A stretch of 61,878 bases of DNA, the filler included. It is 13 parts of 13 records of this genome, joined end to end, with 100 filler letters (N's around TTAATTAATTAA, not from the genome) between each part and the next. Parts side by side here need not be neighbours in the genome. Positions count along the whole stretch, not along the records: positions 32,576 to 36,747 come from SRR7504441_67761; 12 more parts are not named here. One strand, given 5' to 3'. The translations under genes and the position numbers were made by a program. Positions within the stretch are counted from its first letter, which is position 1. Each line of letters begins with the position of its first letter. This document shows positions 4,855 through 61,844 of the stretch, piece after piece. A model generated the notes under the pieces. The model did not search any database and was not told where the DNA came from. It saw only the letters and a program-made list of their open reading frames with translations.

Positions 4855-5880
4855 ATGATCAGAGACCGGGCGGGCCACAAGCCCAAGAACCGGAAGAGGC
4901 TCTCTGGCGACCGGGCCGGGCTCGGGCTGGCCGGCGACGAGAACCAGCCGCCGGGCGAGGGCTCCAGCCCCCAGAAGAAGCAGAAATGTGCGCCGGGCCG
5001 CCCGGCCGGTCTGACCGGTGCCGCAGTCGAGCCTCCCGCCCCCCGGCAGCCGACCGCGGCGGTGGAACGGCCCGACGACTGCCCGCTGTGCCTGGAGAAG
5101 GGCGAGTTGGCCCGGTGGAGGGCCCCAGGCAGCGGCGCCGTCTGTCGACCTTCAGGCTCGCCGCCTCAGCCAGAGGACGACACCAAGTGCCCGAGCTGCC
5201 TGTATGTCGATGGCCCCAGCCAGCCGGCCGAGCAGCCCAGCCACATGCCGCTGGCGCTCAGCCTCGGGCTCGACGCCAACGCCAAGAGCTTCACGCCGTC
5301 GAAGAAGCGGCAGGAGCCGGCTAAGGTGGACGAGTTGGCCTCCGAGAGCATGCAACTGTTCTACCTGAGCAAGACCTCCGTCCCTCAGGAAATGATGGGT
5401 GCGCCTGCCCGGGCGAGCCGCAGACCGACCGGTGGAGCAGGTCGGATTCGGGTGATCCAGCGGAATCTGATGTACGTTACAAACATCCCGCCCGCGATGG
5501 CCGACCAGAGGAAGCTGGCAGCGGAGCGATTCGGCGAGTTCGGCGAGGTGGCGCGACTGGTGATCCGGACGATCCCGGCCTCCAAGCCCGGCCAGTCCCC
5601 GGTGATTTCAGCGTACGTTACCTACGAGCACGAGCAGTCGACGGCGCTGGCGATCTCGCAGCTGAATGGGAAGCACGTGGAGGGGAAGCGGCTGCGGGCG
5701 TCGTATGGGTCTAACAAGTACTGCAACGCGTTCATCCGAGGCGAACAGTGCACCAACCCGCGCTGTTCGTACCTGCACCAGCTGTCGGGGACACACGAGT
5801 GCTTCTGGGAGAAGAGCGGGCACTGCGGGGCCGTCCAAGGCAAGAAGCAGAAGGGCGGCCAGCGCAAGCTAACCAACTGA
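4855..5880 (+). CDS. CNOT4/Not4-like protein (RRM + C3H1 zinc finger, reduced RING)
   Basis: IRVIQRNLMYV...FGEFGEV...SAYVTY...LRASYGSNKYCNAFIRGEQCTNPRCSYLH matches the Not4 RRM-C3H1 signature. Only CPLC and CPSC remain of the N-terminal RING. Confidence 0.8.
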   Translation: MIRDRAGHKPKNRKRLSGDRAGLGLAGDENQPPGEGSSPQKKQKCAPGRPAGLTGAAVEPPAPRQPTAAVERPDDCPLCLEKGELARWRAPGSGAVCRPSGSPPQPEDDTKCPSCLYVDGPSQPAEQPSHMPLALSLGLDANAKSFTPSKKRQEPAKVDELASESMQLFYLSKTSVPQEMMGAPARASRRPTGGAGRIRVIQRNLMYVTNIPPAMADQRKLAAERFGEFGEVARLVIRTIPASKPGQSPVISAYVTYEHEQSTALAISQLNGKHVEGKRLRASYGSNKYCNAFIRGEQCTNPRCSYLHQLSGTHECFWEKSGHCGAVQGKKQKGGQRKLTN

Positions 5881-6588: not shown

Positions 6589-7362
6589 TCGTTGCCGGAG
6601 CCCTCGCGCGCCGTCGAGCCGGCTGGCCACGCGCTCCAGACGCTGCCGGCCGAGCTCCGGAAAGTGCTGTTCCAGCTGCAAAGAGCGCCGGAGGTGCTGT
6701 TGTATTGTCCGTTGGAGTCGGTTGATTGCCGTTGTGGCAGCTGGTGGTCTGGCGAGCCCCGGCTGACCGGCCGAGCTTTATCTTCGCTGTGTGCGATGGG
6801 TTTGAGAGTAAGCTCGCGGTGCCCGACCCCGTTGCGATCTCGCGACTGCTCGCGGACCCAGTCGGGTATATATATATATATATAGCTATAGTATGGTATA
6901 GCATAGTATAGTATCGCGGAGCTAGCGGGTATACAGCCCGACTATAACGGACATATAACATACAGGTGTATAGGCTCCGAGCAGTATAGTATAGTATATA
7001 GTACAGTATAGCATATACGTGACACGATAACGGACAGGTATATAGGCTCACAGCAGGCGCTGACCGGGACGATTGTTCACTCGATACTAAGCGGCTCGGG
7101 TGCAACGGAAGTGGCCGAGCTCGATGCCAAGCCCAGGATCGAGCGGATCCGAACCGCGGTGCTCTCTTCACTTCCAGACGAGATGTGGCGCCAGGCTTAT
7201 CAATGCTCTTACAAGCACGTTATGGCCGACCTGGAGAGCCCAGGCGATCCGCCAAAGCTAGCCCAAGCGCCGGATAGGGTGGTCCAGTTGGCCAGCCACC
7301 TGGCGGTGTTAATGCTGTCAGATGATAACATTAGCGCTGAGGTGCTGGTGCTAACCCAATAG
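6589..7362 (+). CDS. PP2C-family protein phosphatase, C-terminal part (5' truncated, 2 introns)
   Basis: FIFAVCDG and SDDNISAEVLVL metal-binding motifs. Introns at ~6704-6740 and 6866-7037 restore one reading frame. Confidence 0.7.
6866..7037 (+). other. 172-nt GT-AG intron containing (TA)n/(TATAG)n filler, flanked by a GGTATATA duplication
   Basis: Removing it joins GTC GG|G TAT ATA GGC in frame with the downstream PP2C exon. Confidence 0.75.
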
Positions 7363-32575: not shown

Positions 32576-35500
32576 CTGACCTGAGCTCGGTGAGCTCGCT
32601 TTCTGCCTTCTCCTTGGCGGCGTTCGCATCCTCAATCCTGCCTTGCACGCCCTGCTGGGCCGAGGAAACTATCAGCGCCACCGCCTGCAGCTCCTCTTTT
32701 AACCTGCAGAAACACCACATAAGCACTCGCAACCAAAGATGTATCGATAATCAACCTGTCTCTTTCCTGATTCGTTTGCTCCAGCTGAAGCTCAAGCACA
32801 CTCTTGGCCTCCGCCGCCTCCTCAAGCTGATCTTCCAGCCTCTGCCTGGCCACACTACTTCCTTCCAAGTGCTCCGCCAGCGCTCGATTCCGCTCAATCA
32901 GCTCGTCGTGTTTGACAGAGCTTTTCTGGAAGAATTCGCGCTCCTGAATGCTGTTGCGCAGCCTCTGCTGAAGATCGTCCTTGATGGCGCGCGACTGCTC
33001 GTATTCGTCAGCCAGAGTTTCTCTGGCGCTGATGCTGCTTCCAAGCGCCTCCTGCAGGCCCTGGTTGGCAATACTGCTCCCCTCCAGCTTCCGCCGCGCC
33101 TGCACACCAGTCAGAGTCTGTTTCAGTTGGTTTCAGTTACCTCATCCCGGTCTGCAGCCATCTCTGAGAGCGCCCAGGCCTTGGCTTCGAGCGCCTCCTC
33201 CATCCCTGTAGCAACACAGATCACTTCTTTTACGAAGCTAACCGCACCGGTCAGCGCTGTCCTGAGAGACTCATTCTCAGCCACAACCCGCGACAGCTCC
33301 CCCGCAGCCAGCTCGCGCTCAGCCTTGGCCTCCGCCGCCTTCGCCTCGGCTATTTTTACATCGCGTCTGCCTTCGTCGAGCTGATTGCTCACCTGAAACT
33401 CTGTCAGATACAGTTAAGGTCTGGTCAAGGCACCTTCTCCAGGTCCGCGCGGGCGGTGCTTGCTTCCTGGATCCTATGGGTTCGTTCAGCCTCGCTTCTG
33501 GCCAGCTCGATGCGACATTCGGTCATCTGCTGGTTGACCGCCTCTTTCTCTGACGCACACGCCTTCAGCTCGTTGCTACATTCCTGCAGCTCGAGCGCCA
33601 GCCGCTTGCTGTCAGCCGACGACGCGGCTAGTTCTGCAGCGCACTCCTCGAGTTCGCACATCAACTGAGCCCGTTGGCCGTTGGCTGCCTCGTGCTGGGC
33701 CGAGATATCGACCAGCTGAGATTCCAAAGTCTCCTGCGAGAGCTTCAGTTTGGCCAGTTCCAGCTCCAGAGAGTTGCTGGCCTCTGCGTGCTCTTCCGCT
33801 TTCTTCAGAGCTCGCTCAGTCTCAGCGTTCGATTGGTTCAAACTCTCAGCGCTGGTCTTCAGTTGCTGTTCCAGAGAAACTCGCTCAGCGTCGCTTCTGG
33901 TCAGCTCGATGCGAGACTCGTTCAGCTGCTGGCCAACAGCCTCTTTCTCTGACGCGCACGCCTTCAGCTCATTGCTGCATTCCTGCAGCTCGAGGGCTAG
34001 CCGCTTGCTGTCTGCAGATGACGCCGCCAGCTCCTCGGTGGACTCCTCTAGTTCTGCCATCAAGTTATCTCTGTCGTCTCTGCACCGCTTCAGCTCTGCC
34101 AGGCTCTTGCTCAGCTCTGCCTCGCACTGAGCGCCCGTGCCCCTGCATGCCTCCAGCTCCTGACCTTGCTTCGCCAGCTCAGTCTGTGCTGACTCCAGCC
34201 GAGTTTCCAGCCCAGCGAGGTCCGTTGTGCTCTGATTCAGCGCCTGTTGCAGCTGATCCTTGTCTGAACAGACCATCAACAACCGCTCTTCGCACTCAGC
34301 ATTCTCTGAAGCCAGTCGCTCATTGTCGGCGGCACAGCCGTGCAACTCCTCAATGCATTCCCTCAGCTGCTGTGAAGCATGCTCCTTCTCGTCAGTACAT
34401 AATTCCAGCTCGGTCCTGATTCGGTCCAGCTCCGCTTTCGCTGTGGCCAGCTCCGCAGCACAGGCGGCCAGCTCCGCTTGTGTGGCTTCGACTTGGCCTC
34501 TCGAGCGCTCGCCCTCTAACATTGCTGTGTTTAGCATCTGCAGTGTCTGCTCCTGCAACTCGAGTGAGGGTCGCACCTTCCTAATTAGGGAATAGTGGGG
34601 CGTCACACCTGCTTCTCTGCTATTTGCTGTCTTGACGCCCGCAGCTCGTGGCAAGACGCCTGCTCGGCCGCCAGCGACTCGCCCAGTACCTGCGCATTCC
34701 TGGTTTAGGATTCCCTGCTCTGGGAATGTGTTAAGTTAGGCGATTTCCTAATTAGGAAGGCGGTTAACACCTTGCTTAGACCGATCAGCCGGTCGGCGTC
34801 GAGCCCTTCCTGCTGACTTTCCAGCAACCCAATCTGCTGCCTCATCGCTCCAGCCTGAGCCGATGTCGCCTGACAGTCCATTAATTTCCGTTCAAGTCAG
34901 TTGGGCCACCTTGACATTCGCATCCAGCTGGTTCGTTAACGTCGCCATCACGCGAGATTCGGCACAGAGCGCCCCAATCCGGTCGGCCCGGCCTTGCGAG
35001 ACCCGCTCCAGCCGGCCGATCCCCTCGAGTAGCGCCTGGTGCTCCCCCACCGCTTGCTGGATCGCCATTGCGTACGCCCCAGCCTTTTGCCGCCATCCGG
35101 TCGCGTCAGCTCGCAGCTCGTTCAGCTCCTGCGAAATGCTCTTGTTCTGACTTCTGGTCTGCTCGTCCTCCTGGCGCAGACTCCTGTTCTGGCCCCTCAG
35201 CCGGTCAAGCTCGTCCTCCTTCAGAGCGAGCGCCTTCTCCACTTTGAGCACCTGCATGGCCGTTAGATTTCAGTTGGTGTCCGTTGAGGCACCGAGGTTT
35301 GGATCTGGTTTCGCGAGGCTTTGGAGCTCTTTCTCTCAGCCGCAAGACACTCCTCCAACTGTTGTATCTGACCAGCCAACTTGGCCTCGGTGCCCTCAAA
35401 CACCTTAGACTGCTCCTGGATTTTCTGTCCCCCAGACCGGGTTAATACACCTTCCTAATTGGGAAATGCTCTAGTGTAACACTTTCCTAATCAGGCAAGT

Positions 35501-36747
35501 CACCTCGGCGACAAGAGCCAGGTGGTTGTCGTGCTCCGCAGCGGCCGCCACAGCCATCGCCTGCTGCTGCTCCACCTCCGCCACCAACACCTCGCAGTTC
35601 TCCTGCAACTTCACATTCTGCGCATGCAGCGTCTGCCTATCGCGCTCCGCAGTTTGCCTCGCCTCAAGCGAAGCCTTGTCCTCCTCTGAGCGCAGTTGCT
35701 CCGCCTTTGCTAGCTCCTCTCTAACGGCTTTAATGCTGGCTTCGGCCTCGGCGTGCTTCTCTTGTGAGGCGGCACATTCTTGCTGCAGCTGGTCGATCCT
35801 CTGCAGGCGCTGAGCCAGCTTGAGCTCCTGCTCTTTCTGCACCTACCCAGCGGATTATTCCCTAATTAGGAAGAATAGTGTTAACCTCGTTGATGTGCTC
35901 TCGCTCCGCCTTGAGCTGTTTCACCGAGCCCTCTGCACAGCCACAATATCAATCTACCAACACTCCACAGACTCACCTGATTGAAGCAGCTGGTCTTGCA
36001 ATTGGCGACACAGCTCCGTGCTCGCCTCCAACTGTTCCACCATCACCAGCCGCTCCGCCTCCAGACAGTCAGCCCTAGACTTCTCGCTCTCGCCTGCCGC
36101 CCGAAGCCGGCCCGTCTCCTCCTCCAGCTCGACCTGGCGCGTCGCAGCCCGTAGCTTGACCTGCTTGAGCGGTTAAAACCTTCCTAATTAGGCAAGTATC
36201 AGTTAACCTGCTTGAGCCACTCCTGCGACTCCAACAACCCGGCGCATTTCTGGTTGAGTTCGAGCTGCAGCCCGTCGACTGCCATGCGAGACTCCAGCAG
36301 CTGCTCCTTCTGAGCCACAACCATCTCCTTGAGCTTAACTGCCCAGCCGGTCAATTCCAAATTAGGAAGGTGTTACACTAAACTAACTCCTAATTAACAA
36401 GCTCACTCGCTGTGATCTCGCTCTCACGCCGACTTTCCGTCTCGGCTGCAAGCTCGTCAGCGCATTTAGCTTGCTGCAGACTTGAGAAATTAGCCTCGCT
36501 GTCTAGGTGCTGCTGTGTCTGCTGAAGCTGCGCCTGACAGCTCAGGAGCTCAGCTCTGACTGTGTCCAGCTCGGCTGCAGTTGCCTCGTGTCTTGAGAGA
36601 ACAAGCATCTGAGTCTCAACCCTCTCATGCGCCTCTGCGATTGATTGGTTCATCGATACCATGTCTTGCTCTAAACCAAGCACAGCAACGTGGTATTCAT
36701 TCCGTGTCTCGACGGCATCCTCCAGCACGGCCTCGAGCCCCGACCGC
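32576..36747 (-). CDS. Very long coiled-coil protein, intron-rich, both ends truncated
   Basis: Heptad-rich exons spliced through more than 10 short introns; internal ~57-aa repeat (ELAASSADSKRLALELQECSNELKACASEKEAV) at ~33480-33660 and ~33885-34060. Confidence 0.75.
34577..36406 (-). mobile_element. Cluster of six related introns sharing a palindromic TTCCTAATTAGGAA core (introner-like family)
   Basis: Introns 34577-34608, ~34690-34770, 35425-35503, 35843-35885, 36161-36207 and 36339-36406. Cores at 34580, 34747, 35454/35486, 35861, 36183 and 36357/36389. Confidence 0.65.
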
Positions 36748-36847
36748 NNNNNNNNNNNNNNNNNNNNNNNNNNNNNNNNNNNNNNNNNNNNTTAATTAAT
36801 TAANNNNNNNNNNNNNNNNNNNNNNNNNNNNNNNNNNNNNNNNNNNN

Positions 36848-52605: not shown

Positions 52606-55600
52606 CCGCTCCGAGCACAGAAGCCCCCAGCGCAGCCCCCACTACAGGAACTCCCAGTCAGGCCCCGACCACAGGCGCCCCGACCACGGCAGCGCCCACC
52701 ACGGCAGCGCCGACCCAGGCCCCGACAGGAGCTCCGACCACAGCAGCTCCCACGCTGTCACCGACAACCGGGGCGCCAACAACAAGCGCCCCCACCACAG
52801 GAGCCCCGACCCAGGCACCGACGGCTGCGGGCCCGTTTTCACTCAATTTGGTGGTTTATCCACCCGAAGGCGGTGAGAGCGAGGAACACCGCGCGCTGGC
52901 CAACCTGACATATCTCGTTCTCGAGTGTGCGGCTCAGCAAGTCAAGGGTCATCCGATCAGTGTAGGATATTACTATGGCTCGGATGCTGTGCTATTTGAG
53001 GAGCAGATGTACAATTTGTCCGTGCGTACGGATGGCTACAGCCGGAATACCGGTTTTGTAACAAGCGATACTCGTGACGGCTACCAGGTGATGATGAGAA
53101 CTCAGTCCCTCGACGGGTCAGCTGGTCCGCCTGTGCTGGTGATCTGGCCGGTGGCTCGCAAGCTCTGGAAGCTGAACAAAATGCTCCAAGTGGATTTGCT
53201 TCCACACATGTTCGCAATGCACCCGCCGGTCAACTTGGATGCCCTCTACTGGGTGATGCGACAGCTCGCATGGCGGTCTGTGTACATAGTGCAGGATACG
53301 GCTGCACACGCCTACACCGCTGCAGCTTTGGGCCATTGGAATGAGCTGAATGGAGAGCCGATTGTCATCGCAGGGTCAATTGATGTGAATCGGACAATGT
53401 CCAATAGCACATTGGACAGCCTTCTAGAGCACGCGGGGGGTGTTGGAGCGAGGCTCTTCTTGCTCATGACGGATGAGCAAGCTGTGTTTGAAGCGGTGGT
53501 GAGCTCAGCGCGTCGGATTGGGCTGTGGAATAACACTGCTTGGATAACCAATGATCAGTTGGCCTGGTGGCCAATGACATCCTCTGACCCGAGCTTGTAC
53601 GATGGGGTGCTGATTCTGGGACCGGATACCACCATTCACGCCCATGGCACCGCGTGGCTGACGAGCATGTGCCCGTCGCTGGCAAGCGTTAATAGCCAGT
53701 ATCTGACAGAGAGCGCTATGCAACTTGAGCTAGCGTTCGATGCGGTCACTGTAGTTGCTGCAGCATTAGAGTTGGTACCTGCTGCAGCGTTGGAGGCCGG
53801 GGTGACCCAAGCCGAGCTTCTCGATGCGCTCCACAGCGTGAACACCGAAGGCTTCACTGGCCAGCTAAACTTTCCGAGATCGAATGATTCCAGTTCTGCA
53901 ACCGAGCGCTGGACAAGTTGGCACCTTTACAATAGCTATGTGCCGACATTGGCAACCGATCCGCGGTGGAGACAGACCCCGTGGGCCATACGCAGTGTCT
54001 CAGAGCCCCTGGTGGTTTCGGTAGATGGAAATGTCACTGGGGAAATCGACTCAAGCAGTATCTTCTGGCCGTGTGAAACTGACCAAAGCACCGCGGCCTG
54101 CCGGTCACGCAAGCCCCCGTGCTTTGGTAAGTTTGATATGGGTGGGATACTCTCATACATAGGGATCCGTTGCGCCGCCGAGTGGGCAATTTCCAAATTT
54201 AACGAGAACAAATGCTCTGACTCCGACAAAGCAGGTAGAAAGCCGTTTTGTGAGCATAATCTGTCGTTGAAGATGGATTGGAACAGCCAGCGCCTGGATA
54301 CGTATGGCTCGTTTGTGGAGAGGTCTACAGCGGTAGCCGCCCAGTACGTCGATCTTAGTGACTCGAAGCCGCTTGGAAAGGTGCGATTAATTGCAAGTGT
54401 TTGCTCACGGAGGCTCCACGGACAGGTTGGCTTCCTCGGACCAGGATGGTCCCGGCTTGGCGAGGACTTATCGAACTTGCAAAGCTTTACAGACCTCGGA
54501 TTTCCAGTGCCAATGATCGACCCAGCAGCATTTAGCTCTAGCCTGAATAACAAATATTGGAACCCGTACTGGATGAGCACCAACATTGATGCAGATTATG
54601 TCACAGCGGCAATGGCATCGGCTTTTAAGGTGTGCTGCCAACACATGGCCTGGGCTAGATATCGGATAACCCTCTCCTGGCACTGATGACCTGGCAGGCT
54701 CTACAAATCCCACGAACTGGGGTTTTTATAGGCAAGATGAGTGCAAGCGTGGCTGATATCAGCGATGCCTGGATGGCTGCCTATTTGGTAGCCCATGCGT
54801 GCGACTTGCCTGGTATGACCTTGATGGTAGGAGCAAATGACTCTAGCTGGCTTCAACTATTCACAATTGGTTACATTGCAACTTCACCAGGACGAGTATA
54901 TGCGTTTTGATTGGAAGCGCTTTGAGTATGATGCTAGAATGTTCGCTAGATATGCACCGCCTGTGTTCGTTTCTCTGACTCCAGGATATGACATGATTCT
55001 AGACCAAGATATGCAGGATAGAAACGGCTTTGCATCAGCTTACCAGTTCATAGACGAACTCATTGAAGTGTTCTACAAAAACCACCTCGCCGGAAGCCCA
55101 GGGACTATATACGTCGGAAACATTGGACAGAAGCTTGTCCTTTCCGAACTTCTTTCGAATCCCTCATTAGGCGGGTTCGCGTCAGAACATTGGAGTGTAT
55201 TTAGCGGTGCACTATTGTTTGATCGGTTGGAACCATACCGCGATTTCCAAGCAGGTTCCGCATTCGGTAGATAGATTGTGACTGGTTGACCAGGTGTTTC
55301 TCAATTTTGTCGCCAAGATTATCCAGAATATACTTGGGATGACGGCGCAATGGCGTATGCTGATTACGCATTCGCCGCAGTGCAGTCATTCTATGATTCA
55401 CTGCACCAGCTAATGCTCGATGGTCACATGCCCATCCAAGCCTACAATGGGGTCTGCCTGTCCCGTGGATTTCACTGAGGGCCATTTGTCTGCAGACTCT
55501 CATGAATTTCTATTTGAGAGAAACAAGTGTTGACAACCCAGGGCTCATGCCTGACCTCATCGATTATTTTACCTTTCAGATGACCAACTTCTCGACACCG

Positions 55601-59296: not shown

Positions 59297-61476
59297 TTAA
59301 TTACTCAGATACTTGTCACATCCTCGTGCAGAGGAGCCGTCAGCAAGCACCTGATTCGGTCCTGGCGATTGCGAATCGGGAGCATGATCTGGAGTCAAAC
59401 ACACCGCCGCTGACAGCCCGTAGAGTACAACGTTCTTGGTTGAGAACGCTTGGGGGAAACTGAGCAGTCCGATCTGGCTGTACCGTTGGTCTCGCTCCAG
59501 CCTGCTGATCCTCCCCGCATTGAGCAAGTGCATCGCGCCCGCCATCGTCTCGAGCTCATCTTGGTCTGCCACCGACCGGAGCAGCTGCAGCTGCTTTGGG
59601 CTGAGCGGGTCCCATCCGGCTGACCTGCGCGCCCGCTCAGTGCGCCGGCCAGGCCGGTGGGTGCCTGGGGACCAGCTGCTGGTGTTTGCTGAAGCAGCAG
59701 GTGCACACCTGCCGGAAGCGGCTCGACTGAATTTAGTGCAGCCAGCCACCAGGAAGCTGCATCCGTGCCGCCGGGCCAGTGCCAGGCTCAGATCAGCCAG
59801 CCCACCGCATGCATGCAGCCCGACCACCAGATGCACTTGCTCTAGGTCGAAGCTGCTCGCACATCGGTGCTCGAGTGTCAGGTTGGTCAGCCCAAGAGCC
59901 TCCGCAGACCGGCGGACCAACTCCAGCGCGCCATGATTCACATCCACTGCGGTCACCTACGGACAATCAGTGGAGTCAAGCAGGGCTGTGCCTGCAGCTT
60001 TGGAAATCTGTGCGCTAGGCGGAGCGCGAGGTCGCCCTTGCCTGCCGCGAGCTCAATTATGTACTATACTATACTAGCTATACCATACTATACTGTGCTA
60101 TGCTATGTATACGATGGGCTAGGGAGGGTCGCCCTTGCCTGCCGCGAGCTCAACTACGGAGACAACCCCGGGCCGATCGGTTAGGATCCGCTCGATCTGG
60201 CGCATCATCCAGTGCACCTGCTGCTTCTTCCGGTTGTTGTACAGCTCGCCACTCCGGTGGGCCCGTCGCCTCTTGCTTAGTCTAATGAAGTCCGACTGTT
60301 CCTCTGCGACCACTGGCCGACGAGCCGACGGCTCCATCTCGCCCCAACTCTCAGCCGCCTCCTCGCACTGCACCCAGCCTCGGCCTGGCTAGACAGCGGC
60401 TCACCGTCCGCTCGATCACCGGCCAGCGAGCAGCGACGTGGCTAAGGTCTGCGAGTGCGCGCCGCCATTCGCGCGCCTGCTTGGCTTCCTTGTTGGACCG
60501 TGGTACCGCTGCCGCCACCGCCTGGGGCCATCCCATCCCGGACCGCCGGAGCAGCAGGATCTCGAGCACAGTATGCACGTTCAGACTATCGTGCGCCACC
60601 TGGCCAGCCAGCGGGAGAGAGGCAGCCACCAGCCCAAGCTCGCTCGCCCGCCTCAGCGAGCAGCCCTTGGCGCCGCCCTCTGTATTGGCGTCCTCCAGCC
60701 CCCCAATCACCACTGCCGCTGCATTCTCCTCCAACTCGCCCTCGTACACCGCCTCGGCGTCCGGAGATAGGTAGACGCCCCCCGTGAGGTCGGGCGGCGC
60801 CTCGGACCACGCAGCCCCGGGGGTGCCGCGCTTGCAGCCGGGCCCCTTGAGCGCCAGGGCGGCCTGCTTGAACTGTTCCGAGTGGTTGACGAAGATCAGC
60901 TGGACTGGGCGAGGCCCAAACTCGTTGGCCGAGGCGCACTGCTCCAGCTGACGCGAGAGATGCTTGAGCTGCGCCCCAGACATCAGCTGCTCGTACCCGA
61001 GGTCCACGTACACGCGCAGCCCGCCCGCAGTCGCCGCGGCCAGCGCTGCCTGCTGCCGCTTTTTGAAACCGCCTGCCCGGCCCGGGTGAGCCCGCGTGGG
61101 GGCTCGGAGGGCGGCCTGCGCGGTCGAAACTGACCCGCGAGTTGGGCTCCAGCGCGAGGAGCTCGTTCAGCCGGCCGGTGTAGATCGCCCCCCAGTAGCC
61201 CGGCCGGCTGGCGGCCTGACGCAGCTTGGTCAGCTGCCGCTCAAAGCTCCGCTGCTGGGCGTTTGGAGCACTACTTGGAGCTTGAGGAGCGCTGCTGGCC
61301 TCCATCAATGTCCGTTGCCTGGACTGCACGGCCCTGACCATCATTCTGGAGGCCCGCCGTGCCCGGCTCTTCGACAGCCCCTCAAAGTCCGAGTACAAAT
61401 TGTGGGTGCTGTGTCGGCCGGGGTCGTGTCTACAGTCGTTCTTTTTGAGTATCTCCCACCCGGGTACCCGGGCCAT
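59297..61476 (-). CDS. Fusion of a Trm10-type SPOUT tRNA methyltransferase and a class I (GSTCD/Methyltransf_32-like) methyltransferase
   Basis: Trm10: VYVDLGYEQLM, LSRQL, VYLSPDAE, VIGGLED, SLPL, LNVHTVLEIL. Class I: RKKQQV, VVELAAGKGDLA, VTAVD, VVGLHACGGLAD, FSTKN. A 37-nt GT-AG intron (~60369-60405) joins them in frame. Confidence 0.8.
60042..60138 (-). other. 97-nt GC-AG intron formed by a 27-bp exon duplication plus (TATAG)n filler
   Basis: GGTCGCCCTTGCCTGCCGCGAGCTCAA occurs at 60030-60056 and 60127-60153. Splicing CAG|GC...CAG|GC restores ELAAGKGDLA. Confidence 0.8.
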
Positions 61477-61844
61477 CGCTCACTGCCCAGCGCCATTCCT
61501 CTTTTTTTTGACTCCGGATCAGCTTTAATTAAGCCCAGCGCCATTCCCAACGCTCAGCCCGCGCGCGCGGATTTTCATTAACCCTCTCCCTATAGAGATG
61601 GACGCCCGGGTAGAGTTAGGTCCGGGTAGAGTCAGCCCACTAGACAATTTATCATTGTAATAAAACGCCTTGATTTTAAAAAAACTGACAATGGGGTTCA
61701 ACACCGTGAACCATCAAACATATGACTTAATTAAAAGATGATCATAAAAGATGTGAACCATAAAAGATGTGAACCAGAAAGGCAAACGAAGTGTCTGAGT
61801 GCTCCAGCGTCCGCTCTCCCTTACCTCTCCCTCGCCCTTGCGTC

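Follow-up and report, generated by a model that had tools for sequence, protein, structure and literature searches.

A predicted 47-nt intron bordered by an exon-derived repeat: probable insertion of a short palindromic element into a coiled-coil protein gene

How may a small piece of DNA that lands in an exon come to be removed from the message as an intron? The accepted answers invoke either the insertion of a transposon, with a splice site drawn from the duplicated target, or the error-prone repair of a staggered break. The question is raised here by a predicted 47-nt intron on the minus strand, at positions 36161-36207 of the 61,878-nt stretch of DNA analysed (hereafter the window). This segment interrupts a gene for a coiled-coil protein and joins the signatures of both routes in a tiny object: an insert of 35-38 nt belonging to a repeat family, and a long exon-derived repeat holding the acceptor. 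Our preferred answer, to which we assign a probability of roughly 0.55, is that a short member of a palindromic family was inserted in the exon, that fill-in of a staggered break duplicated the target, and that the duplicated AG came to serve as acceptor. The locus is a clean example of a published intron-making route and not a new one, target duplications that supply splice sites being already published. Its notable features are its small size, the length of its repeat, and the presence of other repeat-flanked inserts in the window.

The window consists of 13 contigs of approximately 3-8 kb, joined by 100-nt linkers of the form N44-TTAATTAATTAA-N44 (for example at 36748-36847), and genes separated by a linker are not necessarily genomic neighbours. 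The intron under study sits in the contig at 32576-36747. Long open reading frames (ORFs) of other contigs, their translations read by eye, are eukaryotic in kind and include a chloride channel, an aldehyde dehydrogenase and a dynein, while the public sequencing runs that have words in common with the contig include a seawater metagenome. The source organism is taken to be an uncultured marine protist.

The repeat, the insert and the predicted intron

The 12-mer ACCTGCTTGAGC occurs exactly at 36159-36170 and again at 36206-36217, and since the bases flanking the two copies differ, the repeat is exactly 12 nt long. Read on the minus strand, the upstream copy (36206..36217) has the sense GCTCAAGCAG|GT, i.e. 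the last 10 nt of the exon followed by the donor GT, while the downstream copy (36159..36170) covers the intron's final 10 nt, acceptor AG among them, and extends 2 nt into the following exon. A repeat copy of the upstream exon end thus now forms the 3' end of the intron, AG included. Between the copies lies an insert of 35 nt (36171..36205, to which no strand was assigned), which starts with GGTTAA, carries the palindromic core CCTAATTAGG at its centre (36183..36192), and has a GC content of 0.34 against 0.68 in its flanks. The positions of the repeat, the 35-nt insert and its central core agree with the original prediction. The prediction had also given the insert the ends GGTTAA and TTAACC, and here only the first holds as worded: the right-hand TTAACC (36203-36208) spans the border between insert and repeat, with TTA in the former and ACC in the latter.

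In shuffled windows, exact direct repeats of at least 12 nt at offsets of up to 120 nt averaged 0.37 per window and never exceeded one (30 shuffles), against 20 in the real window. Most of these 20 have an offset divisible by three and are coding repeats; that of ACCTGCTTGAGC is 47 and breaks the frame. The 12-nt repeat exceeds chance.

The repeat allows 13 equivalent excisions of 47 nt, among which a single register, 36207..36161 on the minus strand, is GT-AG (GTTAAC...CAAGCAG). Excision in this register joins ...EWLKQ|VKLRAAT..., while reading through meets a stop at once (GTT AAC TGA), and the frame is lost when the excision is moved beyond the registers that the repeat allows. The host gene (32635..36746, minus strand) is truncated at its 5' end by the contig edge and is modelled with 11 GT-AG introns of 35-81 nt, referred to below by number, with the repeat-flanked intron as #2. 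Removing all 11 leaves a single open frame, 1179 codons long, that extends from 36746, at the contig edge, to 32635; keeping any one of them breaks this frame, and retention of intron #2 shortens it to 1026 codons. These observations support the view that the segment at 36161-36207 behaves as an intron and that its predicted excision is seamless for the protein. The claim that splicing here would regenerate exactly one copy of the repeat (WLKQ|VKLR) is thereby borne out, both by the frame and by the unique GT-AG register.

The element's end may contribute to splicing in a further way, as a branch-point-like TTAAC (36172..36176, minus strand) lies 13 nt from the acceptor and is a candidate site. 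The branch-point consensus is YTRAY, and motifs of this form occur 11-18 nt from the acceptor in eight of the 12 other modelled introns, those without one being #4, #8, #9 and the intron of insert (c), described below. Very short introns, of 35-47 nt, seem usual for this organism. Two tiny introns of the coiled-coil gene, at 33399-33433 (35 nt) and 33100-33140 (41 nt) on the minus strand, carry no core. A protein search with the exon downstream of intron #2 returned 152 candidates, none of them significant, and a search for close relatives with the same exon returned no candidates.

An independent view of the locus is offered by three public sequencing runs (shares 0.10, 0.08 and 0.05), which were compared with the contig at 90% likeness. 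One public-run contig covers 35972-36191, differs from the window at seven of 220 positions (approximately 3% divergence), and crosses from the exon, via the left repeat copy, into 21 nt of the insert. The left junction is therefore not an artefact of this assembly. Coverage is interrupted at 36216-36355, leaving the right junction uncovered.

The palindromic family within the gene

With up to one mismatch allowed, the core CCTAATTAGG occurs eight times in the window against an expectation of 0.77, and none of 100 shuffles reached eight. Seven of the eight matches fall in the coiled-coil gene, where six of the 11 introns carry the core. The other 12 contigs (approximately 56 kb) hold one core with a single mismatch, at 55162, and no clear family copy; relatives of the 35-nt insert within the window are likewise found only inside the same gene. 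An extra two-core copy with a similar tail, whose flanks are absent from the window, occurs in two runs of one study.

The five family introns other than #2, all on the minus strand, vary in the number and preservation of their units. Intron #1 (36339..36406, 68 nt) has the donor arm GTGAGCTTG, two degenerate cores and the acceptor tail CCGGCTGGGCAG. Intron #4 (35843..35885, 43 nt) opens with the same donor as #2, G|GTTAAC, and has one perfect core, the tail CCGCTGGGTAG and a junction repeat of only 4 nt. Intron #5 (35425..35503, 79 nt) combines the donor arm GTGACTTG with two one-mismatch cores, a TTAACC and the tail CGGTCTGGGGGACAG, while #9 (34553..34608, 56 nt) contains a perfect core. The best-kept palindrome of the family makes up the first 43 nt (34728-34770) of intron #8 (34690..34770, 81 nt); as DNA it forms a strong hairpin (z = -4.56, with none of 200 shuffles as stable). 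At position 35874, within intron #4, contigs of two public runs are 4 nt shorter, and family introns thus vary by small indels among strains.

Alignment of the copies on their cores reveals the recurring arm AAGGTGTTAAC(A)C. The donor arm GTGA(C/G)(C)TTG precedes the core in #1 and #5, ACTTG precedes it in #2, and the acceptor tail CCGG(C)TGGG.AG is found in #1, #4 and #5. Units are single or paired and occur in both orientations. The exons around the six introns are unrelated to each other; it is the core and arms that the introns have in common. Membership of the insert in a repeat family, as previously proposed, is upheld by the excess of cores and by the arms shared with #1, #4, #5, #8 and #9. 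Sequence-similar copies at several unrelated intron positions, one of the features by which introners are recognised, are thus present in six of 11 introns, together with the copy with foreign flanks.

The copy in intron #2 keeps the donor side and the TTAACC end. The family tail is absent from it, and a copy of the upstream exon end stands in its place. Of the internal evidence, this substitution speaks most strongly for a duplicated target, as opposed to family sequence, as the source of the repeat.

Origin of the intron

The preferred sequence of events may be set out as follows. A member of the CCTAATTAGG family, 35-38 nt long, would have inserted into the exon at ...GCTCAAGCA^GGTC..., and fill-in of the staggered break would have duplicated 9-12 bp of the target. 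The donor G|GTTAAC would then have formed where the upstream target copy met the element end, the element's other end (TTAAC) would have fallen at branch-point distance, and the acceptor AG would have come from the downstream one of the two target copies. Such an insert would have been spliceable at once, removal of 47 nt restoring the original message exactly, and it may have been retained in the exon because the duplicated piece held AG|GY and so permitted exact splicing. We infer from the DNA sequence that the event was an insertion, that splicing proceeds as predicted, and what enzymology produced the insert.

How much of this was contributed by the target depends on how the junctions are parsed. 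Counting insert and repeat separately gives a duplication of 12 bp; taking the inverted ends GGTTAA/TTAACC (6 bp) as the element's own gives a 38-nt element (36171-36208) and a duplication of 9 bp; another parse yields 10 bp. The exact 12-nt repeat reported earlier thus stands, while the length of the duplication itself lies between 9 and 12 bp. The original prediction further held that a duplicated proto-splice site supplied both donor and acceptor. Its first half is in difficulty: intron #4 has the identical G|GTTAAC donor without a long repeat, and the donor GT of #2 may therefore be element-borne. Only the acceptor appears clearly recruited from the duplicated exon target. The claim that #2 is the youngest member of the family finds no support, as the insert is common to a strain approximately 3% divergent and its palindrome is degenerate; in addition, coding or splice constraint leaves only eight of the 12 repeat positions free, a point likewise counted against it.

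Several points weigh against our account. The length of the duplication is ambiguous, the TTAACC end overlapping the repeat. A long repeat, with a duplication of 9-12 bp that carries the acceptor AG, is found in one of the six family introns, the other five having 0-5 nt. The palindrome of this copy is degenerate, and its folding does not exceed that of shuffled sequence, whether computed for RNA (z = +0.52; 133 of 200 shuffles of the 36161-36207 intron did equally well or better) or for DNA (z = -0.08). Known members of the family come from one gene and one other locus, public scans having returned only unrelated matches. Neither an empty site nor a spliced joint was seen in the three public runs at 90% likeness, with 36216-36355 uncovered, and a junction probe for either had no match in metagenome contigs. 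Splicing at 36161-36207 is deduced from frame logic and the GT-AG ends alone. Finally, the contigs are artificially joined, and the four repeat-flanked inserts of the window might not all come from one organism.

Those four inserts emerged from a scan for low-GC inserts of at least 20 nt bounded by exact repeats, run alongside 10 locally shuffled controls. Four outliers, the insert of #2 and three others termed (b), (c) and (d), have exact flanking repeats of 12, 14, 27 and 15 nt respectively, and the controls reached 9-10 nt at most. Among the 13 modelled introns, 11 have junction repeats of 0-5 nt, the exceptions being #2 with 12 nt and (c) with 27 nt. The original prediction proposed tabulating duplication lengths for the family genome-wide, a fixed length suggesting a transposase and a variable one break repair. 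A small-scale tabulation, for the four inserts of the window, gave 12, 14, 15 and 27 nt; the lengths are variable, and by that yardstick break repair is to be preferred to a transposase of fixed stagger.

The main rival is nevertheless a classical miniature inverted-repeat transposable element (MITE), an introner as understood for Micromonas and Aureococcus, in the form of a 38-nt element with a dedicated transposase, a fixed 9-bp duplication and its own donor, the extra GGT being a coincidence or a target preference. The 6-bp inverted ends speak for it, as do the recurrence of GGTTAAC/TTAACC in #4, #5 and #8, with comparable spacing to the core, and the donor that #4 shares. Introners with duplications of 3-9 bp, constant within a family, and with one splice site supplied by the element and its partner by the duplication, are moreover described in the literature (PMC9860276), and this division of the two sites is the pattern given for Aureococcus in two reports (PMC9860276; bioRxiv 10.1101/2020.10.14.339549). 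Inverted ends of only 6 bp are, however, short for a terminal-inverted-repeat transposon or MITE of fixed duplication; the five other copies, in a sample of six, lack a 9-bp duplication; and among the long ORFs of the window, read by eye without a dedicated search, none was noticed that looked like a transposase. A fixed stagger also fails to explain the unrelated inserts with repeats of 14, 15 and 27 nt, which have no inverted ends. We regard this account as possible, though clearly the less probable.

Because these unrelated inserts carry long repeats and the five other family introns have no duplication, we favour a general process of variable stagger over a cut-and-paste transposase specific to the family; the process could be host repair of staggered breaks with capture of small repeat DNA, or nicking as by a retroelement. 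A broader form of this idea, which we consider rather doubtful as a whole, would have a general process with variable duplications of 12-27 bp produce ready-to-splice introns whenever AG|GY is duplicated, while the family spreads within its own gene. Longer duplications would include AG|GY more often, which would make long-stagger insertion an efficient route of intron gain, and spread within the gene might proceed through DNA or cDNA copies of excised introns captured at nearby breaks. If long, variable duplications prove true genome-wide, the organism would be a good natural system for identifying the nuclease or repair pathway behind intron formation, and would also suit asking whether longer duplications raise the odds of instant spliceability.

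The repeat could instead be secondary, an older family intron having had its 3' end overwritten by a local duplication through slippage or templated repair. Introns #1, #4 and #5 have an acceptor tail of their own, and an ancestral tail in #2 could have been replaced; small indels between strains, such as the 4 nt that two runs lack at 35874, occur in these introns. This scenario is improbable: it requires two events where one suffices, the repeat adjoins the element end exactly and restores the frame seamlessly, and insert (c) has the same architecture at a site where a relative has no intron. Transposition at the RNA level, in which a family intron is reverse-spliced at an AG|GT of the transcript, reverse-transcribed and recombined into the gene, would suit the clustering of the family in one gene (six of 11 introns) and the AG|GT junctions at three of its six introns. 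It predicts no target duplication, whereas eight bases beyond AGGT are duplicated here, and the copy in #2 lacks the family's acceptor tail; we hold it to be very improbable. An assembly artefact or chance repeat with no biological insertion is barely credible, for while the assembly is fragmented (13 contigs of approximately 3-8 kb in the window) and no public contig spans the right junction, the left junction recurs in an independent contig approximately 3% divergent, the repeat is far above shuffle expectation, and the frame demands a 47-nt excision exactly there.

Three further candidates were set aside. Tandem duplication of an AGGT-containing exon segment, a known model of intron gain, accounts poorly for an intron in which 10 of 47 bases copy the exon and 35 nt are foreign, low-GC family sequence. 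A piggyBac-like duplication of TTAA was rejected by eye, as the 12-nt repeat would stay unexplained. A hairpin bringing together the splice sites of the 36161-36207 copy was rejected on the fold values given above.

Same-gene intron duplication in fungi consists of near-identical whole introns at different positions of one gene; the present gene resembles it in holding several related introns, yet these have no more than the core and its arms in common, present singly or in pairs and in either orientation. Huff et al. reportedly described the introners of Aureococcus anophagefferens and Micromonas pusilla in 2016. The element resembles these in being a short, non-autonomous repeat with one site taken from the duplicated target and copies at unrelated positions. 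They are usually of approximately 100 nt or longer, while the element here measures 35-38 nt with a 10-nt palindromic core.

In the introner-like classes 13 and 14 of Polarella glacialis (bioRxiv 10.1101/2020.10.14.339549), both splice sites derive from a 4-nt AGGH duplication. There, and by prediction here, a duplicated AG|G(T/C/A) can furnish both splice sites, the mature message then bears no mark of the insertion, and the proto-splice site is in phase 0; the duplication in Polarella is, however, fixed at 4 nt, with hundreds of copies per class, whereas here it amounts to 9-12 nt in one of six copies, with a donor that is possibly element-borne. Daphnia pulex neointrons (PMC4202315) have exon-end repeats of 4-12 bp (33 cases) ascribed to staggered double-strand-break repair. 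In both systems the end of the exon recurs on the far side of the intron, the repeat varies in length (12, 14, 15 and 27 nt in the window), and the insert is richer in AT than the exons. Daphnia inserts are mostly unique or of unknown origin in that account, unlike the present insert, which belongs to the CCTAATTAGG family, and the window's repeats of 14, 15 and 27 nt are longer. Introners of Amoebophrya (PMC7789003) average 120-240 nt in length, have mostly non-canonical splice sites, and carry inverted repeats measuring 8-20 nt and direct repeats measuring 3-5 nt. The host is likewise a marine protist, with inverted repeats near the intron ends and direct repeats overlapping the exon/intron borders; a 47-nt GT-AG intron with 6-bp inverted ends and a 12-nt repeat nonetheless lies outside that type. 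The core string was absent from the introner literature searched; of the 12 papers that matched it, the 10 listed were off-topic by title, and supplementary lists may hold the core or duplications longer than 9 bp.

Other repeat-flanked inserts and distant matches

Insert (c) provides a second case in the window, its 27-nt exact repeat lying inside a conserved enzyme motif. It occupies 60030-60153 on the minus strand, with a TATAC-rich insert of 70 nt and a predicted intron register at 60042-60138. Of its 28 registers, a single one is GC-AG (minus strand), the repeat containing CAG|GC, and the repeat is split by the junction into 15+12 nt (10+2 nt in intron #2). The intact DNA reads ...GKGDPP-stop; excision restores ...VVELAAGKGDLALRLAHRFPKL..., the glycine-rich motif of a Methyltransf_32 domain that the insert splits. 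The exon that follows matches Pfam Methyltransf_32 (profile positions 56-135 of 143, 27.6 bits against a cutoff of 27), while a Pfam search with the 89-residue exon upstream returned no family. The sole relative among 83 candidates, P0002 (56% identity), reads VDVACGKCDLSLIIAQRFPQL unbroken across the site. The same methyltransferase gene has a predicted neighbouring mini-intron of 35 nt (59957-59991, minus strand), which is GC-AG and joins ...RFPKLQ|VTAVDVNH...; exactly at this point the P0002 sequence is longer by 13 residues, as though an in-frame intron had been translated. P0002 thus has no intron at the site of (c), and the next one is probably common to both.

The insert of (c) has a 28-nt match of 96% in contig 2; the window contains no relative of the insert of (b) or (d). 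The matching segment lies in a non-coding, TATAC/TATAG-rich stretch at 6860-7040, which contains an imperfect tandem duplication of approximately 83 nt. Insert (b), at 89-155, is bounded by the 14-nt exact repeat AAGAAACTCCGTCA and comprises 39 nt with a near-perfect 24-nt palindrome; no canonical splice register was found inside its repeat. Insert (d), at 61485-61547, combines a 15-nt exact repeat with a low-GC insert of 33 nt upstream of a minus-strand ORF. On the minus strand it starts with TTAATTAA and ends in A8GA beside the repeat, features reminiscent of a retroposed fragment. Both (b) and (d) lie in poorly coding sequence.

Beyond the window, an Rfam search of its whole length at gathering thresholds gave no match. 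The family pattern CCTTCCTAATTAGGNAA was found at 15 loci in viral contigs, mostly AT-rich (GC 0.24-0.44) and partly in arrays, and the five inspected loci with a GC content of 0.44-0.59 (L004, L005, L006, L012 and L015) hold single or paired cores without the family ends. A few tens of chance matches were expected by rough estimate, and the viral loci were judged to be chance or unrelated occurrences. The arm pattern CCTAATTAGGAAGN{3,7}TTAACC gave three loci in metagenome contigs, none in viral contigs and four in prokaryote genomes, including three of Gilliamella; these too were judged unrelated, all being low in GC except L017 (GC 0.49).

Four of the viral loci (L002 at 5596-5752, L003 at 601-677, L011 at 1480-1523 and L014 at 2-18) are tandem arrays, with periods of 20 and 28 nt, of CCTTCCTAATTAGGCAACT, a 17-mer that also occurs in the element of intron #2. 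The arrays adjoin a conserved flank and lie in AT-rich viral contigs, some of giant-virus size. They are probably unrelated to the intron family, though the identity of the string is curious. In L007, a viral contig of 2911 nt, the motif occurs with identical flanks near both ends (32-48 and 2822-2838), as expected of a small circular or terminally redundant element.

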